Shown here: positions 2,343-27,105 of the stretch, piece after piece
How the letters are laid out: each line of letters opens with the position of its first letter
How positions within the stretch are numbered: position 1 is the first letter of the stretch
Source of the DNA: a virus
Strand: one strand, 5' to 3'
IMG/VR virus record: IMGVR_UViG_3300025012_000956
Coordinates: 1 to 64,000 of that record
DNA length: 64,000 nucleotides
Notes under the pieces: generated by a model
The model's database searches: none
The model's input: only the letters and a program-made list of their open reading frames with translations
What the model was told of the DNA's origin: nothing
Program-made: the position numbers and the translations under genes

Positions 2343-2368
2343 TTTTTAAAACATAACGGAGAAAGGAA

Positions 2369-6454: not shown

Positions 6455-6772
6455 ATGAAGAAAGAAAAAAATAGTACTGAGAAGGCTGACCAATCTGAAA
6501 AAAATGTAGTTAAGCATGAAACCAGAGATAAACTTATTAGCGAAGTTTATAAAATGATTAACGAATCTGAGTCTGATTATTTTGCAACATTTTTAGATGA
6601 GGAAGAATCGACATCAACTATTATAGATTGGGTCTCTACAGGAGACCCAATTTTGGATATCCACATAAGCAATAGAATGAATGGAGGCATTGCAGTCGGG
6701 CGAATTTCAGAAATTAATGGATTAGAGTCATGTGTAACTGAGGATACACTTATTGATATAATAGTTGAATAA
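6455..6772 (+). CDS. uvsX: RecA/UvsX N-terminal fragment (92 aa) plus 13-aa split-intein N-part
   Basis: WVSTG..LD...GGIAVGRISEINGLES is the RecA region up to mid Walker A, followed by CVTEDTLIDIIVE* (intein block A, 6731-6769). Confidence 0.9.
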   Translation: MKKEKNSTEKADQSEKNVVKHETRDKLISEVYKMINESESDYFATFLDEEESTSTIIDWVSTGDPILDIHISNRMNGGIAVGRISEINGLESCVTEDTLIDIIVE

Positions 6773-6847
6773 AATAATGTTCAACCTAAGAATAAGAATT
6801 TTGCAAAGGGTAAAGATAGTAATAGTTATGGAAGATCACCATCAATT

Positions 6848-7300
6848 ATGTCTGGGAGGGGAATCAATGGATATTTAAATTATTACGATAATAAAATATA
6901 TTTTAGAAGTAGTCTAGAGATGTTAGTTTATATTTATTTATGTGAAAATAATGTAAGGTTTGAATTATCCAAACATAGAATAGAGTATGATAACGGAAAT
7001 AAGACATATAATCCAGATATAGTTATTGATAATACAATAATAGAAATAAAACCAAAATTTCTATTAAATTGTAAAACAGTTGTGGACAAATTAGAAGCTC
7101 TCAAAAATTATTGTAATATATTTAACCTTAAATTTAAAATAATTACAGAAGATTCATATGAAATATGGAAATATTTCAATAAAGATTTTATAGAATTGTT
7201 AATAAAAGAAAATAAATTGATATTATCAGATAAACAAAAAGAAAGATTATATAACTATAATTGGAAGTTTAATTATGGACATACAAAAAATAAAAATTAA
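6848..7300 (+). CDS. free-standing PD-(D/E)XK (TnsA-N-like) putative homing endonuclease, probably 5'-truncated
   Basis: FRSSLE...YNPDIVI...IEIKP; frame stays open back to 6773. Confidence 0.75.
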   Translation: MSGRGINGYLNYYDNKIYFRSSLEMLVYIYLCENNVRFELSKHRIEYDNGNKTYNPDIVIDNTIIEIKPKFLLNCKTVVDKLEALKNYCNIFNLKFKIITEDSYEIWKYFNKDFIELLIKENKLILSDKQKERLYNYNWKFNYGHTKNKN

Positions 7301-8579
7301 AGATGTTAAAAAGTTACTCGATTCGGGCAAAATAGTAAGGGTGAAAACTCTAAATGGAGATTTTACTAAGATTAAGAATTATATTACTAAAGGAATACTA
7401 GATACATATGAAATTGAACTTGAAAACCTTAATAAGATTAAGGTTTCGGCAACCCATCTGTTTTTTAGTAATATTGGATGGATTAAAACCGAAAATCTGA
7501 AAGTCAATAAACATAGTTTGTTGTGTGATGATGGTGGGTACCATCTTGTTAAGAAAATAGAATATGTAGGAAAACATAATATAGTTGATATAGGTGTAGA
7601 ACATTTAGAACAGTGCTATTTCGGTAATGGAATACTTAATCATAATTCTGGAAAATCTTTGTTAATCGGTCACATATTAGCAGAAACTCAGAAAAAAGAT
7701 GGAATTGCCGTATTAATAGATACTGAAGATGCGATTGATAGAGATTTTTTAAAAATTATAGGCGTGGATCTAAATAAATTAATTTATGTAAATACAAATT
7801 TAATAGAAGATGTATTTGAAATAATTGAGAGTATTATAGAAAAGGTTAGAAAAGATGACTCTAATAAACTTATTACCATAGCAGTTGATTCTATAATGGG
7901 CGCAACGGATAAAACAGAAGATGAAGCGGGCTGGGACAAAGCAGGTTATAAGACTCAAAAAGCAATTATCATTGGACAAGCAATGAGAAAAATAACTCAT
8001 ACGATTGCAAAATATAGAATTGCGCTTGTGTTTACTAATCAATTAAGAACCAAGCTCGGGGTACTTTGGGGAGATCCTCTCACAACATCCGGAGGTAAAG
8101 CTATTGGATTTCATGCATCACTCAGACTTAGATTAAAAATGTTATCTCAGATAAAATTGAAGGACAAAACTGTTGGTATTAAGGTAAACTGTACTGTAAA
8201 AAAGAGCAGATTTGGTTCAATGTATAATTCATGTAACTTTGATATTTATTTTGATAGAGGACTAGATCCTATTTCAACTTGGTTTGAAGAAGGAAAACGA
8301 TATAAAATAATAATTCCTGCAAAAAAATTGGATGATGTTGGTAAAAAAATGAAAGAAGTGAAGGGATGGAACATGTTAGATACTGATGAAAATCAACCTG
8401 AGCACTTTTTCCAACTACCGTCGTTTGAAGAAAAAATATTAAAAAATTCGGAAAAAAAGGAATACTTATATACAAAATTAGTTGACAATATTCTTCTAAA
8501 ATATAAGAACAGGTCTCAACTTATTCCTATGGATAAAGAAGAGCTGAAGTATATAGGCGATGAAGAAGATGAAGGATAA
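7275..8579 (+). CDS. uvsX: split-intein C-part (124 aa, 7275-7646) plus RecA/UvsX C-terminal fragment
   Basis: SATH (block B), VDIGVE...YFGNGILNHN|SGKS; then IDTEDA, VDSI, FTNQLR, TSGGKAIGFHASLRL RecA motifs. Confidence 0.92.
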   Translation: MDIQKIKIKDVKKLLDSGKIVRVKTLNGDFTKIKNYITKGILDTYEIELENLNKIKVSATHLFFSNIGWIKTENLKVNKHSLLCDDGGYHLVKKIEYVGKHNIVDIGVEHLEQCYFGNGILNHNSGKSLLIGHILAETQKKDGIAVLIDTEDAIDRDFLKIIGVDLNKLIYVNTNLIEDVFEIIESIIEKVRKDDSNKLITIAVDSIMGATDKTEDEAGWDKAGYKTQKAIIIGQAMRKITHTIAKYRIALVFTNQLRTKLGVLWGDPLTTSGGKAIGFHASLRLRLKMLSQIKLKDKTVGIKVNCTVKKSRFGSMYNSCNFDIYFDRGLDPISTWFEEGKRYKIIIPAKKLDDVGKKMKEVKGWNMLDTDENQPEHFFQLPSFEEKILKNSEKKEYLYTKLVDNILLKYKNRSQLIPMDKEELKYIGDEEDEG

Positions 8580-9627
8580 GTTTAGAGCTATTTTAGATGA
8601 AATAGAAAAAGACAATAGAGGTTTAAGTTCACAAAACATAAATTCTAGAATATTACTAGTAGATGGTTTAAATAATTATATTAGAATTTGGGTCATTATG
8701 CCAACTGTTAATGAAGACGGAACTCACGTTGGAGGAATTGTTGGATTTTTACAGACGTTGGGTTTAGCAATTCGGACGCTTCGACCAACTAGACTAATAG
8801 TTACTTTCGATGGGAAGGGCGGCTCCTTGCGTAGGAGAAAACTATATCCACAATATAAACAGAATAGAGGACGAGGCGTTCGTTTAAATAGAACCCATAA
8901 TTGGGCAGATGATGCAGAAGAATCTAAACAGATGATGTATCAATTAATGAGGGTTATAAAATATTTAAGTCAACTACCATGTACAGTAATTTCAGTAGAT
9001 AATATCGAAGCAGATGACACAATAGGATATATATGTGAGTTATGCAGAGAAAATGATGATACTGAAAGTTTATTTATAATGTCTTCAGATAAAGATTTTT
9101 ATCAACTAGTAGATAAAAAAATAAAAATTTGGAATCCAGTTAAAAAGAAAATGACTGAATATAATGATATTATAAATGAATTTAATATTCAGCCATATAA
9201 TTTTTTATTATTTAAGGCTATGAACGGTGACAGTAGTGATAACTTACCAAAGATAAAAGGTATAGGAAAAAAGACAGGAATTAAAAATTTTCCTTTATTA
9301 ACTGAAACAACCCAATATAGTACAACTGATGTATTAAAGTATGCTCAGGAGCACCAGGATAGCTCCAGATTATGCAGAATACTTCTAGATAATAGTAAAC
9401 AATATGAATTAAATTACATACTTATGAGGCTCGCTGGAGGTAATATAAGCAAATCAGCTGCTTTACATATTTTAGATAAGTTCAATTCTAAACCTCATAA
9501 ACTAGATCACCATAGTATTCAAGAACTAGTATTAGAGGACAAACTTTGGTCTTCATTTCCGAACATAAACTCATGGGTAAATTTAAATTTTGCCCGTTTG
9601 AACTTTTTCGCGATGAAAAATAAATAA
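8560..9627 (+). CDS. 5'-3' exonuclease / flap endonuclease (T4 RNase H-like)
   Basis: LLVDG, FDGKGG..RR.LYP.YK.NR, EADDTIG, SSDKDFYQL, GDSSDNLP.IKGIG. Confidence 0.92.
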   Translation: MKKMKDKFRAILDEIEKDNRGLSSQNINSRILLVDGLNNYIRIWVIMPTVNEDGTHVGGIVGFLQTLGLAIRTLRPTRLIVTFDGKGGSLRRRKLYPQYKQNRGRGVRLNRTHNWADDAEESKQMMYQLMRVIKYLSQLPCTVISVDNIEADDTIGYICELCRENDDTESLFIMSSDKDFYQLVDKKIKIWNPVKKKMTEYNDIINEFNIQPYNFLLFKAMNGDSSDNLPKIKGIGKKTGIKNFPLLTETTQYSTTDVLKYAQEHQDSSRLCRILLDNSKQYELNYILMRLAGGNISKSAALHILDKFNSKPHKLDHHSIQELVLEDKLWSSFPNINSWVNLNFARLNFFAMKNK

Positions 9628-9682
9628 TTTTATTACTTTTTAAATTGTAAATTTGTAGAAATTAAAGAATGGTAACATCTAA

Positions 9683-11023
9683 GTGGAAGTAGATAATCTT
9701 GCAAATTTTGGTCAATCATATCAATCGAAAACGATTTATTCTTTGCTTACTGATGGGCCATTTTTAGAACAGATAGAAGATGTTTTATTTACAGAATATT
9801 TTGAATCTGAAGCGAATCAATGGATTGTAAAAATAATCAAACAGCACTTTGAGGTGTTTAAAGTACCCCCTACTTTAGATGTATTTAAATGTGAACTAGA
9901 AAAAGAAACAAATGATTTATTTAAAGAAGAAATCATAAAGAGATTATCAGATGCGCTTGATTATAAAGATGCACAAGACCTGCAATATATAAAGGAAAAC
10001 TTTATTCAGTTCTGTATCAATCAGCACTACAAGATTACATTTTATCAATCCTTAGATGATTATAAAAAAGGAAATTATTCTGCGATTAGAAAAAGATTCG
10101 AAGATGCAGAAAAAGTAGGACAAAGTAGAGATTTAGGTCTTATGTTATTAGACAAAACAGCAGACACTGTAATGAATCAACTTAAGAGAAAAACTATATC
10201 AACTCCATGGGACATAATAAATGATATGACAGAAGGAGGCTTGGCACCTGGGGATTTATCAATAATAGTTGGAGGACCGGGAGCGGGAAAATCATGGTTT
10301 TTATGCAATGTTGGGTCGCATGGTTTAAAATTAGGATTAAACATAATCCATTATACATTAGAACTAGATGATATAATGATTGCAAGAAGATATTATTCTT
10401 TATTTACTGGTATACCGAGTATGGATTTAAAATATAGTTTAAGTGAAATAGATAGTAAAATTACTGTATATAAGAATAAAAATGCAACACTATGTATAAA
10501 GAAATACCCAACAAAACGTGCATCTATTAATACTCTAATTACACATGTTAAAAAATATAAATCCATGGGGTTAAACCCTGACTTAATTGTAGTAGATTAT
10601 GCTGATTTACTTAAGCCAGAAAAATTTTACAAAGACAAACGATTAGAATTAGGTAACATATATGAGGAACTAAGAGGAATGGCTGGTGAACTTCAGGTAC
10701 CAATTTGGACTGGAAGTCAGGCAAACCGTTGTCTATTTTTAGATACAAATGTTATAACATGTGATAAGGGTACTATAAAAATAGTAAATATTACTGTAGG
10801 AGATAAAATATTAACGCATGCTGGGTTTAAAAAAGTAACATTTATATATCCTATAGAAAAACAACCCGTTTATAAAATCAAAACAAAGGGAGGAAAAGAA
10901 ATTTTGGTTTCTGCTAAGCATTTATTTCCAGTTCAATACAATAAGTTCAAATCAATTGATAGTGGTCTAGTTCCAGGTGATAAATTATTTATTAAAAAGC
11001 AAAAATTGACACCTAGTTCATAA
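9683..11023 (+). CDS. replicative helicase (gp41/DnaB) N-fragment (349 aa) plus split-intein N-part (97 aa, 10730-11020)
   Basis: GGPGAGKS, YTLEL, VVDYADL, WTGSQANR|CLFLDT...SAKH. Confidence 0.92.
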   Translation: MEVDNLANFGQSYQSKTIYSLLTDGPFLEQIEDVLFTEYFESEANQWIVKIIKQHFEVFKVPPTLDVFKCELEKETNDLFKEEIIKRLSDALDYKDAQDLQYIKENFIQFCINQHYKITFYQSLDDYKKGNYSAIRKRFEDAEKVGQSRDLGLMLLDKTADTVMNQLKRKTISTPWDIINDMTEGGLAPGDLSIIVGGPGAGKSWFLCNVGSHGLKLGLNIIHYTLELDDIMIARRYYSLFTGIPSMDLKYSLSEIDSKITVYKNKNATLCIKKYPTKRASINTLITHVKKYKSMGLNPDLIVVDYADLLKPEKFYKDKRLELGNIYEELRGMAGELQVPIWTGSQANRCLFLDTNVITCDKGTIKIVNITVGDKILTHAGFKKVTFIYPIEKQPVYKIKTKGGKEILVSAKHLFPVQYNKFKSIDSGLVPGDKLFIKKQKLTPSS

Positions 11024-11070
11024 GAATTTTTTATTTTTCTATATATTATTATAATAAAATAGGAAAATAC

Positions 11071-12200
11071 ATGGAAACAATATCATTCGATGATTTTACA
11101 AAATTCAAAAACATTAAAACATATAGATTAACTAACAAACAAAAACAGCAACTGGTAGACATATTAAATTCATTTGATAAAAATATATATCATCAAATAG
11201 ATATATAATAGAAAACTTTATAAAGTATGATGTAGAATTTGATCCTACTTGGAAAAACAGGTTTATTAAAATTAAAAATATTTTAAAGCATGATTCTTGT
11301 TCACTAGATTCTTTCGTAACCAGATATGGAAAAAGCAATGGACATACATTGTGGTTAGAAAGAAGAAAAGGTATTAGTGTAACTAAAGAAAAATATGCAA
11401 AAAAGCACGGAATAGATAAAGCTAATGAATTATCACGTAAGAAGGCATGTATTGGTAAACATATAATGATAAATAAATATGGAATTGAAGAAGGAACAGA
11501 TAAATGGAATTCATATTTAAAAAAATGGAAACATAGTTATAAAGAAAATAAACAATATCATAAACCATCAAATACCAAATCTCTGAATTTTTGGGTAAAT
11601 AGATTAGGAAAAGAGGAAGGAACTAAAAAATACAATTTTATTATAGGAAAACAGAAGTATAGATTCTCTAAGCAATATTATATTGATACATACGGGAAAG
11701 AACAAGGAGAAATAGAGTGGCAAAATTATATAGCTTCAATGAATAAAACATCATTAACTTCTTTTATAAGTAGATATGGAGATAAAAAAGGAAACAAAAA
11801 ATTTAAAAAATACTTAGAAAAATTAAAAAGAAGCCATCGATCGACATATTATAGTAAAGTTTCTCAGGAACTATTTTGGTCAATTTATAATTTACTACCT
11901 CAAATCACCCAGCAATATTGTAGATTTGCTGAATTTGGTGGAGAAGAAAAAATATACTACATAAATGATTATGATATCTTTTATCCAGATTTTAAGTTGT
12001 GCAATGTTGTAATAGAATTTGATGGTGATTATTGGCACAGCAGAGAAACTACAATTATAGCAGATAAACTCAGAGAAGAAAAATTGATTAGCAAAGGATA
12101 TGAAGTATTGAGAATTAAAGAAAAAGATTATAGTTTAAACGAAGAATTAATACTTGATAATTGTATTGAATTTATAAAGGAAAATATAAATGAAACATAG
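11071..12200 (+). CDS. Vsr/DUF559-like (EDxHD-type) putative homing endonuclease, frameshifted near 11180
   Basis: ATG 11071 with RBS; the frame of 11349 is open from 11181; repeated xYGxxxG units; C-terminal YPDF...IEFDGDYWH...GYEVLRIKE. Confidence 0.75.
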
Positions 12201-12651
12201 GTTAAAGAAGGGGGACTTTATAATAGATGAAATAGAGTCTATAGAATTAGTAGGAGATTTGCCAACAATAGATATTGAAGTAGAAAAAACGCATATGTTT
12301 TTTGCAAATGATATATATGTGCATAATTCTGGTTCCTCAACAGAGTTTATTTCAGGAGAACAAATTGCAGAAGATTACAGTAAAATAATGACAGGAGATT
12401 TTATATTTTCTATTTCACGTAAAATAGAGGATGCAATGCATAAAACTGCTAGAATTTTTATAATAAAAAACAGATTTGGAGTTGATAAAATAATATGTCC
12501 TGCAAAATTTGATGTTTCAAATGGAAATTCTGTAATTCATGATCCATCATCTTTACTAGGCAAAGAAACTAAAGGTCAGATGAATAAAGATGATAATATA
12601 AAGAGTTTAATAAGAGAAAGATTGTTTTCTGACAAAAAAAGAAAAAAATAA
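12190..12651 (+). CDS. split-intein C-part (46 aa, 12190-12327) plus helicase C-fragment
   Basis: TIDIEVEKTHMFFANDIYVHN|SG; then IAEDYSK..TGDFI, IKNRFG. Confidence 0.92.
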   Translation: MKHRLKKGDFIIDEIESIELVGDLPTIDIEVEKTHMFFANDIYVHNSGSSTEFISGEQIAEDYSKIMTGDFIFSISRKIEDAMHKTARIFIIKNRFGVDKIICPAKFDVSNGNSVIHDPSSLLGKETKGQMNKDDNIKSLIRERLFSDKKRKK

Positions 12652-12800
12652 AAAATATTTTAAAATTTTTTAGTAAAAAAGAAATTCGACTACTAATTAT
12701 TATATGTGCACATAACGCGTTATTGAATCTAAAAATATATTAGATATCCTTATTAAAGGTACCCTTTAATAGCTAGCCATATTATAAATACTGTATTTAT

Positions 12801-12856
12801 ACTTTAAAACTTTAAAACTTTAAAACTTTAAAACTTTAAAACTTTAAAACTTTAAA
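12801..12856. repeat. perfect 8-bp tandem repeat (ACTTTAAA)x7
   Basis: Read directly; intergenic between helicase and nrdJ. Confidence 0.95.
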
Positions 12857-12917
12857 TCTATTTTAAATTAATTAATAACTTTTAAATTATAAATACCACC
12901 TAACTGGAGAAGTTTTA

Positions 12918-14234
12918 ATGATAAAGTTTGAAGATGTAAAAAATATTACCAATGAAGAATATTTCAATGGAAATCAATTTTCTATTGATGCTTATAATAA
13001 AAAATATGCAGCCTATCCAGAAGAAACTTACGTAAAAGCCCTCAAACGAGTATGTGATTTTGTAGCATCTGTTGAGGCTACAGAAGAACTTAAAAAATAT
13101 TGGAGTGAAAAATGGTTCGATGAAATTTATAATGATTGGTGGCATCCTGCTGGGAGTATAATGCAAGGAGCAGGTTCTGGTAGAAAAATTTCATTATCTA
13201 ATTGTACTACAATTTCAATGGGTGTCCTAGATGATAATAAGGAATGGGATAATTTAGAATCTATAATAAAAAATACAGGTTATACATTAGCAAAAGCTGC
13301 TGCATATCGTCAAGGATCAGGAATCGATGGTTCACGACTTCGTCCAGAAGGATCCTCAGTTTTAAATTCTGCTAATACTAGTACTGGAGTATTACACTGG
13401 CTACAGTGGTTAGATAGTATGGCATATTGTGTAGGGCAAAACGGACGCAGGCCGGCAATGCTTTTCTCATTATCTTGTTCCCACCCAGATATAGAAAAAT
13501 TTATAACTGTTAAATCTGATTACACTACAATTCAAAATGCTAACATTAGCGTTCAAATTACAAATAAATTTTACGAAGCAGCAGAAAAGAATGAAGATTG
13601 GGAATTATATTTTAAGGTATCTAAAACTAAAAAAGGTGACAAAATATATTTGGATATACATTCTATAGACATAGATTGTTTATGGGATAAAGAAGTTAAG
13701 TCTTGGTATAGAATTGCCACGCACGATAAAAAAGAACAGGTTATAAGAAAAACGGTTAATGCTAGAAAGCTTTTAGAATTGATTGCCGAAAATATGAGTA
13801 ACAATGCAGAACCAGGAATTCAAAATATTGACATAGCCAGAGAGTACTCAAACTCAGACGTTTTTTATGATCCAGAAAATAAAGAATTCGATCCTAGAAT
13901 TATTTCTACAAATGCCTGTTGTGTAGTAGAAGAAACGAAGGTGATGACTGACAAGGGATGGTTAACGATGGAACAGATTTATGATACAATGATTAATAAA
14001 AAAGAAACATTATTAGGAATGAGCTATAATATTAAAGAAAAATTATATGAGTTTAAACCTATATCAAATGTATATCAACATAGAAATGATGTTACTGTTA
14101 ATTTAGAAATAGAAGAAGAAGGAAAAATTTATAGAATAGAGTGCTCATCTGATCATCCTATATTAACAGAGAATAGAGGATTTGTAAAAGCTATTAGTTT
14201 GTCTAAAGATGATAACATAGTAATTTATAAATAA
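12918..14234 (+). CDS. nrdJ: class II (B12) ribonucleotide reductase N-fragment (334 aa) plus split-intein N-part (104 aa, 13920-14231)
   Basis: PAGSI, LSNC, LRPEG, QNGRRPA, NANISV, AEPG, STNAC|CVVEET...SSDH. Confidence 0.9.
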   Translation: MIKFEDVKNITNEEYFNGNQFSIDAYNKKYAAYPEETYVKALKRVCDFVASVEATEELKKYWSEKWFDEIYNDWWHPAGSIMQGAGSGRKISLSNCTTISMGVLDDNKEWDNLESIIKNTGYTLAKAAAYRQGSGIDGSRLRPEGSSVLNSANTSTGVLHWLQWLDSMAYCVGQNGRRPAMLFSLSCSHPDIEKFITVKSDYTTIQNANISVQITNKFYEAAEKNEDWELYFKVSKTKKGDKIYLDIHSIDIDCLWDKEVKSWYRIATHDKKEQVIRKTVNARKLLELIAENMSNNAEPGIQNIDIAREYSNSDVFYDPENKEFDPRIISTNACCVVEETKVMTDKGWLTMEQIYDTMINKKETLLGMSYNIKEKLYEFKPISNVYQHRNDVTVNLEIEEEGKIYRIECSSDHPILTENRGFVKAISLSKDDNIVIYK

Positions 14235-14259
14235 AATACTGTTCATTTATTATAGACTT

Positions 14260-14270
14260 CTATATTTATA
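14260..14270 (+). promoter_or_regulatory. recurrent CTATATTTAT motif, putative phage promoter
   Basis: Also at 17027, 43797, 47429, 53539; variants at 1256, 5534, 11039, 19351, 19420, 24887, 63218; intergenic, mostly shortly upstream of an ATG. Confidence 0.6.
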
Positions 14271-14298
14271 ATAAACAATACTTAATAGGAGATTTATT

Positions 14299-15315
14299 AT
14301 GAATAATTGTATAAGGATGAAAGGTAGAATAAAAAGAGGAAACTATAGTTTAGGAAGAGGATATAGTGGTTGGTATACCACTAAATATAATAAAAATGTG
14401 TTCTTACGATCTTTACAAGAATTTGTTTTCGCTAAAGAATTAGATTTTAATAAAATTCCTTTCTTAACAGAACAAACAATATTTAGGATTAACAAAGAAA
14501 ATTATAAACCAGATTTTTTTATATATTCAGATAATATATTTAAAAACTTGATAAAAATAATAGAGTTAAAAAACTCTGAAGATGATTTTAAAAGATATTT
14601 AGATTATATTCCGTATTTTAAGAATATAAACGTAGAGTATGAATTAATAACAGGAAAGGATTTAAGAAAAAATTATATATTCTGTTCAGTTGATGATATG
14701 AATGTGTGGAGGCAGAGTAGTATAAATTCAAGTATCATACTTTCTGGTATACATAATCCAATGTATGGAATGCACCATACAGAAGAAACAAAGAACAAAA
14801 TAGGAAATAAAACTAGAGAATATATGAAGGACCCCACCACAAAAAGAAAACATTCAGAAAATATAAAGGCATTTTGGAATAGTAGTAAATCAGATCATGT
14901 AAAGAAAAAATATAGAAAATTAAGAAAGATAGAAAAAATAAAAAGATTAGAATTAAAAAACATATTAGATCCTATTATAAATTGTAATTGTATTATATGT
15001 GAATCAAAGTTTAAAAAAAGAAAATCATCTAAGAGATTAACATGTTCTGGAAGTTGTGAACAAAAATATACATGGAGAATAGGTAAAAGAAAGTATGTCG
15101 ATTATGCGGATATTGCAAAAAAAACATATAGAAAACGAATACTGGGTTATATGAAAATAATGAATGAAGATATAAATTTGAATAGTATGAGTACGTTGAT
15201 AGATAAGTATAAAAATAATAAATTAATTCCAAATACCTTTGGGTTGAATATTAATATTATTAATAAATATTTTGGAAACTTGGACAATCTGAAACTGGAG
15301 ATAAATAATGGGTAA
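14299..15315 (+). CDS. putative homing endonuclease (TnsA-N-like PD-(D/E)XK plus NUMOD3 plus Cys cluster)
   Basis: GRGYSG, LRSLQE, YKPDFFI, IELK; HNPMYGMHHTEETK. Confidence 0.8.
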   Translation: MNNCIRMKGRIKRGNYSLGRGYSGWYTTKYNKNVFLRSLQEFVFAKELDFNKIPFLTEQTIFRINKENYKPDFFIYSDNIFKNLIKIIELKNSEDDFKRYLDYIPYFKNINVEYELITGKDLRKNYIFCSVDDMNVWRQSSINSSIILSGIHNPMYGMHHTEETKNKIGNKTREYMKDPTTKRKHSENIKAFWNSSKSDHVKKKYRKLRKIEKIKRLELKNILDPIINCNCIICESKFKKRKSSKRLTCSGSCEQKYTWRIGKRKYVDYADIAKKTYRKRILGYMKIMNEDINLNSMSTLIDKYKNNKLIPNTFGLNINIINKYFGNLDNLKLEINNG

Positions 15316-17014
15316 ACTATTATCTATAGAAATATGTGATAAAATAAAAAGGTTATATGATATAGAGATCAAAGACAATAATAATTTTATTGTTAATGAT
15401 GGAATAGTCATACACAATTCTGAACAATACCTAAACCGAGACGGAGGATGTTTCTTAGCGTCAATAAATATGGAGAAATTCGAAACAAATTCATCAACAT
15501 ATAGACCTCAGTTAATTTTAATAGGAGAATCTATAAATAGATTTTTAGATAATGTTGTTTCATGTGAATTGGTTTATCATACTTATGCAACTCCTCATCA
15601 AAGACTTTCAAATGAAATGCTAAGAAGAACAGGTGCAGGGGTTACAAATATCGGTGGGTGGTTATTTAAATTAAATTTGGAATACGGAAGTAAGATAGCA
15701 AATGAAAAAGTAGAGGAATTTTTAGATGTTTATAATTTTAGCTTATACTTATCTACTGTTAATTTAGGTAAGGAAAAAGGAAATTTTAAATTATTTGATA
15801 AAGAAAAAATACTTAAATCTAAATTTATAAAACAACTTATTAAGAGATGGCCAGAATTAACATTTAATACTATGAGAAATGTTACTGTTTCCACCATAGC
15901 TCCATGTGGCACTCTAAGTCTTATGTTCAGACATATGGGTATGGGTTATGGAGTCGAGCCATCATTTGGAATATATTATTGGAAGAGAACAAGAATAAGT
16001 GGTAAATATGAATATTATTTCATAGTTCCTTATATTGTGAGAGAAGCATTTGACACAGCAGGAATTCCTATTCCAATGAAATCAGACACTATTAAAGATA
16101 CGTGGGATGGAAAATATGGTATACCAATAGCACAATTCATAGATGAAAATAAATCTAAATTAGACATACATTTTAAATCTGCAACTGAAATAAATCCATT
16201 AAATAAATTAGATTTAATGATTAGAGCAATGAAGTCAGTTGATTCTTCTATCTCAGTAACATACATGTTACCGGAGAGTAGCAACCCTAAAGATGTATAT
16301 GAGTTTATATTAAAAGCACATGAAGGTGGAGTAAAATCTATTGCTGCATTTCCTGATAGAAAAATGTATGGGATTATTTCTTATGTTCCATTTAAAGAAT
16401 TAGCGAATAAATTATTATCAGAAAATACCATTATAACACCACAGAACTTTACTGAAGGGGAATTGCAAGAATTGAACATGTCATTAGATTTTATTAAAGC
16501 TAGTTCAGCTCCGAAGAGGCTTAAAAAATTACCAGCAGATATTTATAATATTACAGTTAAAACTGAAAAATTTATTGTTGCTATTGGTTTATTAAATGGA
16601 GCCCCATATGAAATTTTTTGCGGTAAAATGAATGGATTAAATTTTAAATTTGTTCATAAGAAAGGTATAATTGAAAAGGTTAAACGCGGTCAATATAAAT
16701 TAGATATAGGTGAAGATATTTCAGTAGAAGATTTCTCCGGATATTTTAAACCTGTAGAAGCAGAATTGTTTAGGATGGTTTCTACTGCGCTTAGACACGG
16801 CGTACCCATTAGATTTTTGGTAGAACAATTAAGTAAATCTGCAGAAGATTTACAATCATTAACAATTGCAGCTGCTCGCGTATTGAAGAAATATATAAAG
16901 GCAGGAGAAGTAACTGGAATTCAATGTCCTCAGTGTTGTTCTTCTGTTATATATGACGAAACAGGGTGTACTACATGTACAAACTTACAATGTGGATGGG
17001 CTAAATGTTTTTAA
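15308..17014 (+). CDS. nrdJ: split-intein C-part (37 aa, 15308-15418) plus NrdJ C-fragment
   Basis: LYDIEIKDNNNFIVNDGIVIHN|SEQYL; CFLASIN, RRTGAG, TIAPCGT, GVEP, DSSISVT; TSCPD-type tail with Zn ribbon. Confidence 0.9.
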   Translation: MGKLLSIEICDKIKRLYDIEIKDNNNFIVNDGIVIHNSEQYLNRDGGCFLASINMEKFETNSSTYRPQLILIGESINRFLDNVVSCELVYHTYATPHQRLSNEMLRRTGAGVTNIGGWLFKLNLEYGSKIANEKVEEFLDVYNFSLYLSTVNLGKEKGNFKLFDKEKILKSKFIKQLIKRWPELTFNTMRNVTVSTIAPCGTLSLMFRHMGMGYGVEPSFGIYYWKRTRISGKYEYYFIVPYIVREAFDTAGIPIPMKSDTIKDTWDGKYGIPIAQFIDENKSKLDIHFKSATEINPLNKLDLMIRAMKSVDSSISVTYMLPESSNPKDVYEFILKAHEGGVKSIAAFPDRKMYGIISYVPFKELANKLLSENTIITPQNFTEGELQELNMSLDFIKASSAPKRLKKLPADIYNITVKTEKFIVAIGLLNGAPYEIFCGKMNGLNFKFVHKKGIIEKVKRGQYKLDIGEDISVEDFSGYFKPVEAELFRMVSTALRHGVPIRFLVEQLSKSAEDLQSLTIAAARVLKKYIKAGEVTGIQCPQCCSSVIYDETGCTTCTNLQCGWAKCF

Positions 17015-17669: not shown

Positions 17670-17731
17670 GGAACTAAAATGGTTATATTATATCCTATTA
17701 GAAAAATAGAACTACTGAGTGAATAGAGTTT

Positions 17732-19333: not shown

Positions 19334-19442
19334 CTTCATAGAAATTCATTTTATATTTATTAATAACAAACCTCACTAAAATAAAAGTTATAAATAAAGT
19401 GTATTTTTTTACACTTTTCCTATATATTATAAAGAACATATT

Positions 19443-19604
19443 ATGAAAACAATTAAAATTGATGATCTATCTTATGAAATACTGAAGAAATACTGTAATA
19501 AGATTGGATTAAAAATAACTAGATTTGTTTCTAATATGATTGTGGAATATATAGAGAAAAAAGATGGAATTAAAATTAATAAGAAAATGTCCGAATCCAA
19601 ATAA
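19443..19604 (+). CDS. small ribbon-helix-helix-like protein (53 aa; below the ORF-track cutoff)
   Basis: MKTIKIDDLSYEILKKYCNKIGLKITRFVSNMIVEYI; paralogues at 43811 and 53565. Confidence 0.7.
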   Translation: MKTIKIDDLSYEILKKYCNKIGLKITRFVSNMIVEYIEKKDGIKINKKMSESK

Positions 19605-20412
19605 TAATCCTAGATGTAAATGTATATTAAATTATACAACTAAAAAGGGATATCTAGGTGCTTTACGTAGAAATACTATGTGTAAAAGTTGTTCAATGAG
19701 TAAATCTCCCAATAAATTAGTCTATGAAAGAATATGTCCTAATCCTAAAGATAATCCAGGTTGTAGAGTAAATTTAAAATATAAAAGTAAACAAAAATAT
19801 TATATAGCATTAGAAAAAAATTCTACATGTCATAGTTGTTGTTCCTATAGTAATGCATATAATATCTGTAGAAAATGTTCAAATGAAACGAAGAAAAAAT
19901 TATCTATTATATTTAAAGGTAGAAAATTTACTGATGAGTGGAAAAATAATATTAGAATTGCAAGATTAAAGATGATCGAGTCTGGAAAAAACTTTGGAAT
20001 GTATGGAAGTAGTATGTATGATAGTTGGTTAATTAAATATGGTAAAGAGGAAGCAGATAAAAAACAGATAGAAAAAATAAAGAAAATCAGATTAAAACTT
20101 CACACGAGATTGAAGGATAAATTTAATTGTATTAGTCCAGCATTCTTTAATCCAGAAGCATGCAAAATAATAGATGAATATGGTAAAACTAACGGCTATT
20201 CATTCCAACATGCTCTAAACGGTGGAGAATTTTATATTAAAGAATTGGGTTATTGGGTAGATGGGTATGATAAAGATAAAAACGTTGTTATAGAAATTGA
20301 TGAAAAGCATCATTTTGATAAAAATGGAAATTTAAGAGAATCTGATAGTAATAGACAGGCCGAAATAGAAAATTTACTATGTTGTAAAAAATTCATTAGA
20401 GTAAAAATTTAA
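19564..20412 (+). CDS. Zn-finger/NUMOD3/Vsr-like putative homing endonuclease
   Basis: Two RxCPNPxxNPxC...CxSC repeats; NPEACKIIDEYGK...HALNGGEF...YWVDGYD...IEIDEKHH. Confidence 0.8.
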   Translation: MELKLIRKCPNPNNNPRCKCILNYTTKKGYLGALRRNTMCKSCSMSKSPNKLVYERICPNPKDNPGCRVNLKYKSKQKYYIALEKNSTCHSCCSYSNAYNICRKCSNETKKKLSIIFKGRKFTDEWKNNIRIARLKMIESGKNFGMYGSSMYDSWLIKYGKEEADKKQIEKIKKIRLKLHTRLKDKFNCISPAFFNPEACKIIDEYGKTNGYSFQHALNGGEFYIKELGYWVDGYDKDKNVVIEIDEKHHFDKNGNLRESDSNRQAEIENLLCCKKFIRVKI

Positions 20413-23400
20413 TGTATACGAATATATATTATGATAGAGAGCGTAATAGAATATCCTTATGGGACGACAAATTTGGATATAGGTCATTCCCATATAAAAA
20501 ATATGCATATATAGAAGATGCTGAAGGTGACTTTTCTACCATCTTTGGTACTAAAGTGAAAAAAATTACAAGTTGGAATAATAATATGGAAGATAAATTA
20601 TATGAATCAGATTTATCTCCAGAGATGAGAACTTTAATAGATGTATATTATGATTCACCTGATAACTTATATCCAGACAATAATATTGTTATATTAGATA
20701 TTGAAGTTGAGACATCTCATTCGCTACCAGATGTATATAAGGCTGAAAATGCTGTTACTGGAATAAGTATTCATGAAAGCAAAAACGATAAATATTATTC
20801 TTTTATATTAGATCTTGATAATAAAATAGATGATAGTAAAATATTTACAGATTCAAAAGGGAATAATGTAATACTTAAAGCTTGTATTTCTGAAAGTCAG
20901 ATGCTTCAGGAATTCATAAATTTGATAGTATTAATTAAACCAACAATATTAACAGGATGGAACATAGAATTCTTTGATATACCATATTTAATTAATAGAA
21001 TAGCAGGTATGTTAGGTGAGGCGATTGTTAAAACATTGTCACCAATAAATATAATTAGATATTCCGAATTTAAAAAAAGATATATTATAGCAGGAATATC
21101 AATTATAGATTATTTAAGTATCTATAAAAAGTTTACATTCTCAGAAGAAGCATCATATAGGTTGGATTCAATAGCTAAGAAAGAAATTGGAAGAGGTAAA
21201 ACTGGATTTGATTGTTCTCTACAAGAATTATATGAAAAGGATATCCATAAATTTATTGAGTATAATATAAATGATGTTGAATTGGTTTTAGAAATAGATA
21301 AAAAGAAAAAATTTATAGATTTAGTAGTAGGTATTTCTCATAAAGGCAGGATTCCATATGAGGATATATTTTATTCTTCTCGTTATCTAGAAGGTGCAAT
21401 TTTATGTGATTTAAAATCTAAAAACTTAGTTGCACCAAATAAACCAAATAGAACTTTAACTAGAGATGTTAGTTTTATAGGTGCATATGTTAAAGATCCA
21501 AAAGTAGGATTTCATGAATGGGTGTTTGATTTAGATTTAACATCTTTATATCCATCAATTATTATGTCACTGAATATATCTCCTGAAACAAAGGTTGGTA
21601 AAATATTAGATTGGAATGCAAATGAATTTACAAGTAGAAAACAGAGAACTTGGAAAGTTTTTAATTTTATAAAAAATGTTGAAGCGGATGTAGATACTAA
21701 AGACTTATGGGATTTTTTAGAAGTTTCTAAATATTATATATCATCAAATGGAATTATCTACCAATCAACGCATCAAAGAGAAGGAGTTATTCCGAAAATA
21801 TTATCTAAGTGGTTCGATGAAAGAGTAGAATATAAAAATCTAATGAAGAAATTTGGTAAAGATAATAAAAAAGACAAGTATGATTTCTATGACAGACTCC
21901 AAAATATACAAAAAGTATTATTAAATTCACTCTATGGTGTACTAGGGTTACCTATTTTTAGATTTTATGATTTAGATAATGCCGCATCTGTTACGGAAAC
22001 AGGTAGATCTATTATAAAATTTTCCGAGAAAAAAGGAGATGAATATTTTAATAATGTTTTGAAAACTAATAATAATTATTGTTTAGCCGGAGACACCGAT
22101 TCTGTTGGAAAAGACAGTGTTATTGATACTAATTTATATGGTAAAATTACATTATTACAGTGTTTTGATAACTTAACTATTAGAGGAGAATGCGATATCT
22201 ATTCCGATATCTCTAACAGAAAATTTATATTCCCAGACAATTTAGTTTTACCCTACTATGATGAAGATAATAAAGAAATATCATATGGTAAGGTGAAATA
22301 TATTGAAAAACACATTATTAACAAGAGAATGTTTAGAATTAAAACAAAATCAGGTAAATTTGTAGACATTACAGAAGATCATTCTTTAATGATTTTAGAT
22401 GAATCGACTAAAAAATTAAAGGAAATCAAACCAAATAAATTAAAAAAAGGTGATAAAATTATTAAATTAAAGTATGACATAGATGAAGTAGACGAGATTA
22501 TAGATTTAGGAATAAAGAAAGAAGTTGTTTTTGATGTGGGCATGGATGATAGTCCACATACGTTTTTTGCAAATAATATTTTAGTACATAATTCAGTATA
22601 TTTCTCAGCATCTCCATTACTTAAATATTTATATCCTAATTTGGATTATTCAAATGAAAAACTTGCTACAGATGCAGTATCTCATATAGTTAGTGATGTA
22701 CAAAAGTATATAAATGATTCATATGATGACTTTGCTAAAGAAATATTAAATATAACGACAGGACATAGATTTAATATAAAACAAGAATTAATTTGTAAGT
22801 CTGGGTTATGGACTGCAAAGAAACGATATGCATTAAAGGTTGTAAATAGAGAAGGAATATTAGTTGATAAATTAGAAGTTAAGGGATTAGATACTGTGAG
22901 GTCTAGTTTTCCTCCAGCATTTAAAGGATTTTTAGAAAAAATGTTAATATCTATATTAGATAAAGAGTCACAGGATAAAATTGATGATGATATAGTTAAG
23001 ATGGAAAACAAATTGAATTCATTTACTATAAACGAAGTATCTAAAAATACCTCAATAACGGATATAGTAAAATATACAGATGAAGTAAGTGGTTATTATG
23101 CAGATAGAATATTTTCTGCTATAAAGAAAGCTACTCCTGCACATGTAAGAGCTGCAATTGCTTTTAATGATTTATTAAAGTATTATGGTTTAGATAATTC
23201 TATTAGTCCGATTAAAAATGGAGAAAAGATTAAGTGGTGTTATCTAAAAAATAATAATTTTGGTTTAGATAAGATTGCATTCAGAGGATATGATGATCCA
23301 AAGGAAATTTTAGATTTTGTAAATACATATATTGATAGGCAACGTATATATGAAAGTGAATTAAAATCTAAAATAGAAAATATATATGCAGCACTTCAGT

Positions 23401-23453
23401 GGAAATTTCCAAGTAGATACAAAAAGTTAGCTAAACAATTTTTCAATATTTAA
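20412..23453 (+). CDS. family B DNA polymerase with contiguous mini-intein
   Basis: DIEVET, TGWNIEFFDIPY, YNINDV, DLTSLYPSII, KVLLNSLYG, GDTD|S, KKRYA. Confidence 0.97.
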   Translation: MYTNIYYDRERNRISLWDDKFGYRSFPYKKYAYIEDAEGDFSTIFGTKVKKITSWNNNMEDKLYESDLSPEMRTLIDVYYDSPDNLYPDNNIVILDIEVETSHSLPDVYKAENAVTGISIHESKNDKYYSFILDLDNKIDDSKIFTDSKGNNVILKACISESQMLQEFINLIVLIKPTILTGWNIEFFDIPYLINRIAGMLGEAIVKTLSPINIIRYSEFKKRYIIAGISIIDYLSIYKKFTFSEEASYRLDSIAKKEIGRGKTGFDCSLQELYEKDIHKFIEYNINDVELVLEIDKKKKFIDLVVGISHKGRIPYEDIFYSSRYLEGAILCDLKSKNLVAPNKPNRTLTRDVSFIGAYVKDPKVGFHEWVFDLDLTSLYPSIIMSLNISPETKVGKILDWNANEFTSRKQRTWKVFNFIKNVEADVDTKDLWDFLEVSKYYISSNGIIYQSTHQREGVIPKILSKWFDERVEYKNLMKKFGKDNKKDKYDFYDRLQNIQKVLLNSLYGVLGLPIFRFYDLDNAASVTETGRSIIKFSEKKGDEYFNNVLKTNNNYCLAGDTDSVGKDSVIDTNLYGKITLLQCFDNLTIRGECDIYSDISNRKFIFPDNLVLPYYDEDNKEISYGKVKYIEKHIINKRMFRIKTKSGKFVDITEDHSLMILDESTKKLKEIKPNKLKKGDKIIKLKYDIDEVDEIIDLGIKKEVVFDVGMDDSPHTFFANNILVHNSVYFSASPLLKYLYPNLDYSNEKLATDAVSHIVSDVQKYINDSYDDFAKEILNITTGHRFNIKQELICKSGLWTAKKRYALKVVNREGILVDKLEVKGLDTVRSSFPPAFKGFLEKMLISILDKESQDKIDDDIVKMENKLNSFTINEVSKNTSITDIVKYTDEVSGYYADRIFSAIKKATPAHVRAAIAFNDLLKYYGLDNSISPIKNGEKIKWCYLKNNNFGLDKIAFRGYDDPKEILDFVNTYIDRQRIYESELKSKIENIYAALQWKFPSRYKKLAKQFFNI
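22101..22592 (+). other. 164-aa cis mini-intein in PolB motif C (GDTD|S), Ser1 / Ser+1
   Basis: SVGKDSVI...ITEDHS...VFDVGM...FFANNILVHN|SVYF; no endonuclease domain. Confidence 0.93.
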
Positions 23454-23465
23454 TCAGAGGTTATA

Positions 23466-24218
23466 ATGAATATTACTAAAAACAGATTATTAAGCTTTAT
23501 AAGAAAGTATAATCTAGGTGGAGAAGTCCAGACGGTTTTATGGACCATTAAAGATAATATATTAAATGTTAAATTTATAATAGATGATGAATCCCTTAGA
23601 GGAGAAGTTAACTGTGAGAATGTAGATCATGAGGATTTAGAATTCGTTATTTATGAAACAGATCCTTTAATAAAAATGCTTTCTGTTTTAGATGACAATA
23701 ATTTTGATGTAACAATATCTCCAATTGCGTTAAATTTTAAAGATGGTAATTCTAAACTTAAATATGTATTAGCAGATAAAAGTTTAGGTCGACGTGTAAA
23801 AAATGTAACTTATCCTAAAGATTTTATAACTATATATGAAACAGAAGATATATTAACAAAGTTTACAAAGGCACTTTCGTCTTTTACTAGGTGTGAAATT
23901 TTTGGAATAATTGCAGATGAATTAGAATCTAAAATAATATTTTCTATGAGAGAAGGTAGTACGGTTGATGTAGATGAAAGCAATTTGTCAGAACAAAAGA
24001 CTCATACATTTAATATTGATATAAAATCTGAAGAAGTTACTTTAGATATTCCTATGTTAAACTTTAATTCTAAAAGATTTAAATCTATAATTGACACTAA
24101 TAAGGGCTTTACAATGTGTAAAATTAAAATATTTAAAGTTGGAATGTTAGAATTAATATTTAAACATGAAGATGATAAAATAGATACAAATTATCAATTA
24201 GTAGCATTACAAAAATAA
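23466..24218 (+). CDS. sliding clamp (gp45/PCNA-like)
   Basis: 250 aa, acidic, beta-rich, lies between polymerase and clamp loader. Confidence 0.65.
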   Translation: MNITKNRLLSFIRKYNLGGEVQTVLWTIKDNILNVKFIIDDESLRGEVNCENVDHEDLEFVIYETDPLIKMLSVLDDNNFDVTISPIALNFKDGNSKLKYVLADKSLGRRVKNVTYPKDFITIYETEDILTKFTKALSSFTRCEIFGIIADELESKIIFSMREGSTVDVDESNLSEQKTHTFNIDIKSEEVTLDIPMLNFNSKRFKSIIDTNKGFTMCKIKIFKVGMLELIFKHEDDKIDTNYQLVALQK

Positions 24219-24226
24219 GGTGTATA

Positions 24227-24853
24227 ATGGAATTAAAAATTAATAGTCTGTTCGCAGAAAAATATAGACCTAATAATTTAGATGAATTTGTGGGTAATAA
24301 ACCCATTATAGATAAATTTAAATTATATATAAAAGAAAAGGATATACCTCATTTATTATTGGTTGGCCCACAGGGATGTGGAAAAACTTCCATCTCAAAA
24401 ATATTAGCAAAGACTATATCTCCAGATGACTATTTATATATAAATGCTTCTGATGAAAATAATATTGAAACCGTTAGAAACAAAATTAAAAATTTTGCTA
24501 TCTCTATTTCTATGAATAGTACAATAAAAATAATTATATTGGATGAATGTTTAGATGAGAATACTCCAGTTTCTGTTCTTAGATGCGGTAAAGAAGTTTT
24601 AATAAAAATTAAGGATTTAGATGATTCTGGAGATTTAGTGAAGTCTTTTAATATTAAGAAAAATAGAATAGAATATATGCCTTTTAATTTAATTGATAAA
24701 GGCATCAGCGATGATTGTTTAGAAATAGAATTAGAAACCGGTGAAATTGTTATATGTTCAAAAACACATGGATGGTATATTGAAAATGAGACCGGCGAAA
24801 TTATAATGGTTAAAGCATCTAATTTGAACAAACACATGCACATTATGACATAA
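24227..24853 (+). CDS. clamp-loader AAA+ subunit (gp44/RFC-like) N-fragment (107 aa) plus split-intein N-part (101 aa, 24548-24850)
   Basis: EKYRP, GPQGCGKT, INASDE, IIILDE|CLDENT...SKTH. Confidence 0.92.
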   Translation: MELKINSLFAEKYRPNNLDEFVGNKPIIDKFKLYIKEKDIPHLLLVGPQGCGKTSISKILAKTISPDDYLYINASDENNIETVRNKIKNFAISISMNSTIKIIILDECLDENTPVSVLRCGKEVLIKIKDLDDSGDLVKSFNIKKNRIEYMPFNLIDKGISDDCLEIELETGEIVICSKTHGWYIENETGEIIMVKASNLNKHMHIMT

Positions 24854-24910
24854 TTTTATACAAAGTGTGATTTTTCTAGATCATACCTATATATATAATT
24901 AAGAAACCTA

Positions 24911-26365
24911 TTGGAGAAAGATGTGTTTGTAAAAATATTAGGAAAAAAAATTGAATCAAATAGAAGTATAACAAATTTATTAAGAAATAAATTTAAAACT
25001 GTTGAAGTTGCATACTTATTGGAGCACGGTATGGATGCACCAAAGTGCAAATATTGTGGATTTAAGTGTATGTTTATTAGTTTTTTTAAAGGATATTTGG
25101 ATAGATGTAATTCAAATGAGTGTATACATAGAAGCGTTGTTGATTCCAATAAAATGTTGGGAAAGAAACGTGTTTTGAACAAGTTGAATAAGGACAGTGA
25201 TTTTTATAAATATATCATACAAAATTCAAATTTTTATATAAACAATTTTAAAAAGATAAATATAATAGAACCCTTTACAGGGATACGTACTGGAAAGCTA
25301 ACTCTACGATCCTTTTTACGAAGACGTATTTCTAAAGAATGTTTTTACACATATAAAGATTGTATATATTGTAATTCATCATTCTTAACAGATATTTTTA
25401 TTAATAGAAAATATTGTCATAATTCTAAATGTGTTGAAAAAGCACGTAGAAAATACATTATAAGTTCTAAACAGTTTACTCCTCAAGAGATAAACAATCT
25501 ATATCAGGTTTTTAGAATAGATGGAATATCTCATGTGGATGCGATGACTAAGATAAGAACCGAATATACATCGGACTATGTGTTAATTAATAAAATTTAC
25601 AAATATTATGACGATTACTCAATACTAAAAATTAAATACTTAACATGTCCAGTTACCGGGTTTATTATACCACTTAGATCAAGATCAAACATTTTAAAAA
25701 AACACTGCTTTATTCATAATATAGATATCAATTCATATATAGAAAAGTATTTTCCGAATTTCATCAGTAGGTGTTTATTATGTGCCGACTTTTCAGAAGT
25801 GAAATCAGATCTTATTAAAGAAACACATAAAAAGTTTTGTAACAGGGATCATTATTTACAATACAAAAAAATTAACCCCGATAAATATAGGTGTAGTGAT
25901 GATCAAAAGAATAAACAATCTAAAATAATTAAAAACTTAATTTTAAGTGGTAAATTTACTCCTAAGACTCAAAATAGGTTTACTCACTTTGAGCAAAAAA
26001 TAGTAATTAATAATATAGAGTATAAGTTTAGGAGTTCTTGGGAAGCTGCATTTTTTGTATCTAACAATATAAATTATGAAAAATCGTATGAGAAGTTGAG
26101 AATTTTATATCGTGATAAGCTTGGTAAATCCCACATATATATTTCTGATTTTTATTTACCAAACACTAATACATTATATGAATTAAAACCAAGAAATTTA
26201 TATAAAATACAAAAATATAAAATGAATGAGGTAATTAAATATTGTAAGACTAATAACATCAAATTTATATGGATTAATGAAGATAATTTATTAAATTTCT
26301 TAAACATTGAAATAGTAAAAAATTATCCAACTATTTTCGATAAGATTAAAGGAATAATAAAGTGA
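24911..26365 (+). CDS. Cys-rich putative homing endonuclease with C-terminal PD-(D/E)XK domain
   Basis: Several CxxC pairs; FRSSWE...YISDFYL...YELKP. Confidence 0.78.
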   Translation: MEKDVFVKILGKKIESNRSITNLLRNKFKTVEVAYLLEHGMDAPKCKYCGFKCMFISFFKGYLDRCNSNECIHRSVVDSNKMLGKKRVLNKLNKDSDFYKYIIQNSNFYINNFKKINIIEPFTGIRTGKLTLRSFLRRRISKECFYTYKDCIYCNSSFLTDIFINRKYCHNSKCVEKARRKYIISSKQFTPQEINNLYQVFRIDGISHVDAMTKIRTEYTSDYVLINKIYKYYDDYSILKIKYLTCPVTGFIIPLRSRSNILKKHCFIHNIDINSYIEKYFPNFISRCLLCADFSEVKSDLIKETHKKFCNRDHYLQYKKINPDKYRCSDDQKNKQSKIIKNLILSGKFTPKTQNRFTHFEQKIVINNIEYKFRSSWEAAFFVSNNINYEKSYEKLRILYRDKLGKSHIYISDFYLPNTNTLYELKPRNLYKIQKYKMNEVIKYCKTNNIKFIWINEDNLLNFLNIEIVKNYPTIFDKIKGIIK

Positions 26366-27105
26366 ATAAAATAAAAATAAAATCAATAAAAAATTACACA
26401 CAGCCCACTCACCTATATGATTTGCATGTATCATCGAATCATAATTTTTTTATCGGCGAAATGGGTACAATTCTCACTCACAACTGTGACTATATGACTC
26501 CTAATGCCCAGGCAGCGTTGAGAAATTTAATGGAAACTTATAGTAGACATACTAGATTTATCTTAACTGCTAATTATTATAATAGAATCTATGAACCTAT
26601 AATTTCTAGGTGTACAGTTTTTGAAATGGGACAAATGCCAAAACCGGATATGGCAAACAGAGTTGCAAACATTTTAGATATAGAAAAGGTAATATATAAA
26701 CCTGAGGATGTGGTTTTATTGATAAACTCTTTTTATCCGGATATGAGACAAATATTAAATGTAACCCAAAGATCAATTACAAATTGGAAACTTGAGGTAA
26801 ATAGTAATGAGATATTAGAATCAGATTATAGGTTGAAAATAATAGATATACTAAAAGATAAAAAGTTATTAAGTGAAACTAAATTTGCGAATATTAGAAA
26901 ATTAATAGCAAATCATCAGATAAAACAATTCACAGATGTGTATAGAATAATGTATGAAAATATAGATGATATTGCAAAAAATGTTTCAGATGTAATCTTA
27001 ATAATTGCAGAACAACAATATCAAGAATCATTTGTGATAGATAAGGAGATCTCCTTTATTGCATGTGTCGTGCGTATATTAAATAGTAATGATATGGAAA
27101 GATAA
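26362..27105 (+). CDS. split-intein C-part (41 aa, 26362-26484) plus clamp-loader C-fragment
   Basis: LYDLHVSSNHNFFIG...ILTHN|CDYMTPNAQAALRNLME, FILTANY, ISRC. Confidence 0.92.
   Translation: MNKIKIKSIKNYTQPTHLYDLHVSSNHNFFIGEMGTILTHNCDYMTPNAQAALRNLMETYSRHTRFILTANYYNRIYEPIISRCTVFEMGQMPKPDMANRVANILDIEKVIYKPEDVVLLINSFYPDMRQILNVTQRSITNWKLEVNSNEILESDYRLKIIDILKDKKLLSETKFANIRKLIANHQIKQFTDVYRIMYENIDDIAKNVSDVILIIAEQQYQESFVIDKEISFIACVVRILNSNDMER

Follow-up and report, generated by a model that had tools for sequence, protein, structure and literature searches.

Four genes of a phage replication module, encoding UvsX, the gp41 helicase, the class II ribonucleotide reductase NrdJ, and the clamp-loader protein gp44, are each divided into two open reading frames (ORFs) that carry the halves of an intein and flank the gene of a free-standing nuclease. 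As judged from the translated sequences, they are very probably fractured genes of the kind described by Dassa (2009; PMC2677866), whose products would be joined by protein trans-splicing. The genes lie in the analyzed window, which covers positions 1 to 64,000 of one IMG/VR virus record with a length of 74.5 kb (IMGVR_UViG_3300025012_000956; CheckV completeness 37%) and is best explained as part of the genome of a T4-like groundwater or soil phage of approximately 200 kb. Near-identical DNA was found in runs from at least 14 studies (groundwater, soil, and sediment). The GC content of the region is 25–32%, and every long ORF there, including all genes considered below, is on the + strand. The gene order (gp32, UvsX, 5'-3' exonuclease, gp41 ... 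PolB, clamp, gp44) is the same as in the nearest cultured relative, Microcystis phage Mel-JY01, where all these replication genes are uninterrupted. Domains were assigned by Pfam, including a six-frame scan, introns were sought with Rfam, and homology to solved inteins was established by a PDB search.

Layout and junctions of the four split genes

The sequence-only reading of this DNA had proposed that each of the four genes is split into an ORF with the intein N-half (IntN), a nuclease gene, and an ORF with the intein C-half (IntC). Both the coordinates and this layout were confirmed by translation and Pfam, which assigned halves of the RecA, DnaB_C, ribonucleotide reductase barrel, and AAA domains to the host parts and placed Intein_splicing pieces on the expected sides. 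The proposal that removal of the intein parts restores each interrupted motif held as well, the in-silico spliced products aligning without gaps across every junction to uninterrupted homologues: RecA, gp41, and gp44, as well as the PolB product considered below, to the proteins of Mel-JY01, and NrdJ to the uninterrupted NrdJ of LR756502.1. The joined intein halves have the lengths of complete mini-inteins, namely 137 (UvsX), 143 (gp41), 141 (NrdJ), and 142 aa (gp44). Position 1 is Cys in the four split inteins and Ser in a fifth, contiguous intein of PolB. Block B reads SATH in UvsX, SAKH in gp41, SSDH in NrdJ, SKTH in gp44, and TEDH in PolB; all five inteins end with HN and are followed by S, S, S, C, and S at position +1, respectively. 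By these residues, as read from the translations, all five are class 1 (HINT) inteins with intact catalytic residues. The resemblance is not due to chance, since the N-halves of gp41 and NrdJ match two solved split inteins of proven activity, gp41-1 (PDB 6QAZ, E 1.7e-13) and NrdJ-1 (PDB 8UBS, E 5.7e-9), respectively.

In the proposed scenario, five conserved active-site motifs of the replication module would have been colonized by mobile inteins, and at four of these sites the insertion of a free-standing homing-endonuclease gene into the intein coding sequence would have broken the host gene in two. Each half would then be translated from its own start, the intein halves would associate, and a class 1 reaction involving Cys1, the block B His, the terminal Asn, and Ser or Cys at +1 would ligate the exteins. 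Such ligation would restore the Walker A motif of UvsX, the gp41 segment immediately following the SQxxR motif, the thiyl-radical loop of NrdJ, and the Walker B motif of gp44.

It is improbable that the halves instead assemble non-covalently, with the intein pieces serving only as a zipper that holds the proteins together without a peptide bond, which is the case for the split NrdA of Aeromonas phage Aeh1. There are ribonucleotide reductases that function in split form without being spliced (PMC3045599), and NrdJ of a crAss-like phage is broken at the same NPC|G loop without intein pieces. Nonetheless, residues needed solely for splicing are present in all four pairs, and none of the 43 complete loci of the gp44 family deviates in Cys1 or the block B His, HN|C being matched in 34 of these loci. 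Moreover, a free chain end would hardly be tolerable at the break sites, which are located within the Walker A and Walker B motifs and the radical loop.

The translation signals are in keeping with separately made halves. All four C-half ORFs, a feature absent from the sequence-only reading, begin within the last 4–26 nt of the preceding nuclease ORF, and every one of them is preceded by a GGAG/AAGGA-type (Shine–Dalgarno-like) site that lies within the nuclease gene near its 3' end. The spacers between the N-half and the nuclease gene are 75 (UvsX), 325 (gp41, including a 45-aa ORF), 64 (NrdJ), and 57 nt (gp44) long; the fractured genes of Dassa have a non-coding spacer of 27–51 nt with brought-in control elements ahead of the endonuclease (PMC2677866). 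No half contains a frameshift or an internal stop, and the ribosome-binding sites are good, which argues against one or more of the genes being decaying pseudogenes whose function is supplied by the host or by another copy elsewhere in the genome, 63% of which is unsequenced. This possibility draws on the fragmentary state of the contig (37% complete) and on the tolerance of phage replication modules for much selfish DNA, and it is marginally less probable still than non-covalent assembly, given that the sequence is near-identical across those 14 or more studies and that the same fractured layouts are kept at 45–56% protein identity. No second copy of any of the four genes was found on the contig, and in a complete (100%) 221-kb relative (G004) both gp41 and gp44 gave fractured matches only.

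Joining at the RNA level, with the nuclease ORF residing in a group I intron, is very improbable, and so is translational bypass. Group I introns that encode a nuclease are frequent in the recA, nrd, and pol genes of phages (PMC2677866, PMC3239194), but no Rfam family matched either strand of positions 5500–27500 at E≤1, and hence there is no recognizable intron in this interval. In addition, intein blocks A/B and F/G stand in frame exactly at the gene ends, and the same families include alleles in which the mini-intein is contiguous and in frame.

Scarcely conceivable, finally, is the explanation of the stop codons or inserts as assembly or sequencing artefacts, which the sequence-only reading had named as a possible source of error. 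The source is indeed a metagenomic assembly; however, when contigs from four runs, each belonging to a different study, were compared over all the N-half stops, nuclease genes, and C-half starts, neither a difference nor a gap was found. No credible nuclease-less or intein-less population variant was found among the mapped contigs. Apparent variant joints had sides of only 20–22 nt and were rejected as spurious contig-overlap artefacts; a 1-nt insertion at 14042, seen in a single contig at a depth of 4.7, was disregarded.

Several considerations lower our confidence in trans-splicing. No RNA run was listed among those that contain the stretch, and the contig represents about 37% of the genome, leaving room for intact paralogues elsewhere. 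Block B of gp41 and of NrdJ is devoid of the usual Thr, which is also absent from gp41-1 (SEEH) and NrdJ-1 (TPDH) in the PDB alignments. At 13 aa, the N-half of the UvsX intein is shorter than any characterized natural one, and its activity is therefore not guaranteed.

The UvsX, gp41, NrdJ, and gp44 loci

The UvsX/RecA N-extein (6455–6730, 92 aa, ending with EINGLES) aligns to the N-terminus of uninterrupted UvsX proteins from relatives (L048–L051 and G001) and Mel-JY01. It is followed by the 13-aa intein N-half (CVTEDTLIDIIVE) and a stop (6731–6772), the 150-aa nuclease HEN1 (6848–7300), which is a TnsA_N/endonuclease I-like PD-(D/E)xK protein, the 124-aa intein C-half (7275–7646), comprising block B and blocks F and G and ending with LNHN, and the C-extein (7647–8579), starting with the SGKS of Walker A. 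A HEN1 homologue (47% identical) precedes the split UvsX of the relative G007. The nearest relatives of this UvsX (L048–L051, 56–63% identity) have the same segment uninterrupted (EINGLESSGKSLLIGHIL), and in G001, where PolB has no intein, the regions matching the N- and C-parts of UvsX meet directly at nucleotides 22034|22035.

Tails of the same type, 13–14 aa long, end two other UvsX N-fragments (P0002 and P0003). The family further includes about ten clusters of C-fragments and three contiguous forms of 531–534 aa (P0015–17), which run on through the coil where the intein of the window is split. An AF2 model of P0015 has a moderate quality (mean pLDDT 58.7), and only its intein region was used; there, pLDDT is 60–89, most residues form beta strands, and the 13 residues correspond to the first two strands. 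In terms of this model, the UvsX break is in the coil after strand 2, i.e., at the S1 position, which makes the split atypical.

Natural atypical N-halves are 15–37 aa long (PMC13014065), the record being 15 aa (PMC10189870); thus, the predicted 13-aa N-half is below the published natural range. VidaL (16-aa N-half, PDB 6VGV) likewise combines a very short N-half with a long C-half containing block B and an S1 split (PMC13014065), although its sequence match to the UvsX intein is only remote (6VGV, E 0.42). PolB16 OarG, with an N-half of 15 aa, is likewise split at S1 after strand 2 (PMC10189870). The UvsX intein differs from both VidaL and PolB16 in its host site, the Walker A motif of UvsX.

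The gp41/DnaB-like helicase N-extein (9683–10729, 349 aa, ending with SQANR) is continued by a Cys-led intein N-half homologous to gp41-1 (10730–11023, 97 aa plus stop). The 325-nt spacer behind it includes the 45-aa ORF (11071–11208), which follows a CTATAT-type motif. The nuclease HEN2 (11349–12200) has a Vsr/DUF559-like C-terminus and an uncertain start: its frame is open from approximately 11174, with no ATG, GTG, or TTG before 11349, and no start at a fixed offset behind the 45-aa ORF was found. The 46-aa intein C-half (12190–12327, ending with IYVHN) and the C-extein (12328–12651, starting with SGSS) complete the locus. A HEN2 homologue (36% identical) is present in the split gp41 of G006.

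Both gp41-1 (PDB 6QAZ/6RIZ) and the gp41 intein of the window are canonically split, have Cys1 and Ser+1, and reside in the same host protein. The insertion of gp41-1 is at position 356 of P-SSM2 gp41 (Dassa, PMC2677866), with SSS at +1 to +3 (PMC7090010), whereas a gap-free local alignment places the intein considered here at R352|S353 of the same protein, the gp41-1 site being 3 residues downstream. According to this alignment, the gp41 intein is not at the gp41-1 insertion point.

Apart from the coding sequences, the 266-nt gap between the 3' part of gp41 and the 5' part of nrdJ harbors a perfect tandem array, (ACTTTAAA)x7, at 12801–12856, which could be a regulatory or origin-like element.

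At the NrdJ locus, the N-extein (12918–13919, 334 aa) ends with TNAC, including the thiyl-radical Cys, and passes into a Cys-led intein N-half homologous to NrdJ-1 (13920–14234, 104 aa plus stop). Next come the 338-aa nuclease HEN3 (14299–15315), with an N-terminal D..ExK motif and NUMOD3, the 37-aa intein C-half (15308–15418, ending with IVIHN), and the C-extein (15419–17014, starting with SEQ). NrdJ-1 was described as being inserted one residue after the NrdA site, behind the radical Cys (Dassa, PMC2677866); the intein of the window occupies the same site right after this Cys (TNAC|SEQ vs. NPC|GEQ), and both have Ser+1. The two differ in that the sequence has diverged and the intervening nuclease is a NUMOD3-bearing PD-(D/E)xK-like protein.

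The crAss-like phage mentioned above, cr108_1 (L069, MT774385.1), has NrdJ annotated as two coding sequences that are interrupted at TNPCG and separated by a gene for a hypothetical protein of 309 aa (308–1243, 1377–2303, and 2345–3916). This is the same NrdJ hotspot, split without intein pieces.

The gp44/RFC-like clamp-loader N-extein (24227–24547, 107 aa) ends within Walker B (IIILDE) and is followed by a Cys-led intein N-half (24548–24853, 101 aa plus stop), the 484-aa nuclease HEN4 (24911–26365), which has a Cys-rich N-part and a TnsA_N-like PD-(D/E)xK C-terminus, the 41-aa intein C-half (26362–26484, ending with ILTHN), whose GTG start overlaps the HEN4 stop, and the C-extein (26485–27105, starting with CDYMT).

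A split clamp-loader intein had been called unfamiliar in the sequence-only reading. This assessment stands for the papers searched, where no such intein was found and only contiguous ones are described (cyanobacterial PolIII gamma and archaeal RFC-S; PMC4760082), and for the 50,697 GenBank phage records, in which the gp44 N-half has no match. It does not extend to the phages of IMG/VR, where this type is common: homologues that are 42–56% identical run through the gp44 intein N-half at 47 loci. Four-fifths of the complete loci (35/43) are split with a HEN4-like nuclease; three are split without a nuclease, and the remaining five are contiguous mini-inteins.

The gp44 N-half of the window has no PDB match at E≤1, and the nearest solved relative of the family, found with the contiguous relative L022 as the query, is the Spl DnaX mini-intein (E 7e-9). 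Spl DnaX (PDB 7CFV) and the archaeal RFC-S inteins (PMC4760082) likewise interrupt AAA+ ATPases of clamp loaders at Walker B or in its immediate vicinity; they are, however, contiguous and belong to cellular genes, whereas the gp44 intein resides in a phage protein, is split, and has a nuclease gene inside. The DnaX intein is placed immediately after Walker B (PMC4760082) and the gp44 intein at DE|CD, the DnaX site being compared here by its description.

An apparent coverage of the gp44 C-half in Pelagibacter phage Mosig proved to be a spurious alignment extension, the Mosig gene being uninterrupted. In the relative G008 (L074, 13131–17631), gp44 appears to be in three pieces, with matches to residues 3–53 and 34–200, followed by a nuclease and the C-part.

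The PolB intein and the nuclease genes

The fifth intein, which the sequence-only reading did not include, is a contiguous 164-aa mini-intein (22101–22592) with Ser1 and Ser+1, inserted into motif C (GDTD|S...HN|SVYF) of PolB (20412–23453). Beyond this intein and the four split ones, none was found in the 74.5-kb contig by regular expressions over all six frames and the six-frame Pfam scan. The PolB intein matches Aes123 PolB1 (PDB 9HTH) with E 1.3e-14 and resembles both Aes123 PolB1 and the split PolB inteins of Pseudomonas phages MIJ3 and PA5oct (PMC6892783) in its Ser1/Ser+1 chemistry and in the motifs of blocks A, B, and G. Unlike them, the intein considered here is contiguous, with the nuclease gene located upstream of polB and not within the intein; in the relative G008 the same PolB intein is split.

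The upstream gene encodes HEN5 (19564–20412), a free-standing Vsr-like nuclease directly adjoining polB and preceded by a 53-aa ORF (19443–19604) and a CTATAT motif. Five paralogues of HEN5 with 33–61% identity are scattered over the contig (44489–44872, 47567–48153, 51727–52005, 53683–53988, and 65361–65882 in contig coordinates), which points to a proliferating family of free-standing nucleases.

Exact copies of CTATAT(A/T)T(A/T)TAA are located at 14260, 17027, and 24887, just upstream of HEN3, orf195, and HEN4, respectively, and near-matches occur at approximately 11038 (CTATATATTAT) and 19420, upstream of the small ORFs that precede HEN2 and HEN5, respectively. When one mismatch is tolerated, the window contains 35 matches vs. 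20 expected. The motif may be a phage promoter that travels with the nuclease cassettes. The scan for promoters and terminators was uninformative (74 sites vs. 83.6 expected in DNA of 28% GC).

Orthogonality and comparison with known systems

The sequence-only reading had supposed that four intein pairs in one replisome must be mutually orthogonal. The five inteins are 20–33% identical pairwise overall, and their N- or C-parts are 16–40% identical. The net charges of IntN/IntC are –4/+4 for UvsX, +10/–5 for gp41, –4/–1 for NrdJ, and –6/+2 for gp44; the reversed polarity of the gp41 pair sets it apart from the others, although charges cannot account for all pairings. In addition, gp41-1 and NrdJ-1 are in use as orthogonal pairs (PMC7090010). 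Cross-reaction is unlikely because of the low identity, the reversed polarity of gp41, and this orthogonal use, so that mutual orthogonality of the four pairs appears plausible from their sequences. That all four actually splice without cross-reaction and constitute a natural co-evolved orthogonal set, with three canonical pairs and one of the S1 type, seems to us an evenly balanced proposition. If this is the case, the set includes the shortest natural N-half yet, which at 13 aa is easily synthesized as a peptide, and a split clamp-loader intein family for which no published description was found. The co-resident inteins, with their low mutual identity and one very short N-half, are candidates for orthogonal ligation and semisynthesis.

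All in all, five core replication and recombination genes in a 20-kb module carry an intein, which illustrates the extent of the selfish load on a phage replisome; if trans-splicing takes place, replication of the phage requires that the products of four of these genes first be ligated post-translationally. Ten related records analyzed with Pfam have from one to five inteins per fragment, and some carry four or five in other combinations. Thus, G001 has an intact UvsX, a gp41 split without a nuclease gene, and a split gp44; G006 has an intact UvsX, a doubly interrupted gp41, and a PolB intein at another site; G007 has a UvsX split with a HEN1-like nuclease and a contiguous gp44 intein. The window contains the most split pairs among the related records examined, and yet it forms a continuum with them. 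In related contigs the same sites are empty, occupied by a contiguous mini-intein, split without a nuclease, or split with a nuclease, and the presence of all these intermediate states at the same sites lends direct support, by comparison, to the model of gene breaking proposed by Dassa (2009). Empty or nuclease-less alleles include L048–L051 at the UvsX site and L001, L009, L023, and L040 at the gp44 site.

The sequence-only reading had regarded this layout as already established, rightly so, gp41 and NrdJ being among the hosts in the Dassa set (PMC2677866). There, too, the N-part with IntN, a short spacer, a free-standing nuclease, and IntC with the C-part follow each other on one strand, with the C-terminal ORF overlapping the nuclease gene; the hosts are likewise phage-like genes of DNA metabolism, and the nucleases here are Vsr-like or PD-(D/E)xK proteins. 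Differences concern the hosts, since Dassa's eight host types include neither UvsX nor the clamp loader; the nucleases, HEN1 and HEN4 being TnsA_N-like vs. GIY-YIG or Vsr-like in the Dassa set; and the density, as four fractured loci and a fifth intein here share one 20-kb module of one genome, unlike in that set. The module is, therefore, an unusually dense but not unique example of a layout known since 2009, which leaves the concept unchanged; what it adds is limited to the new host sites, Walker A of UvsX and Walker B of gp44, and to the 13-aa N-half.

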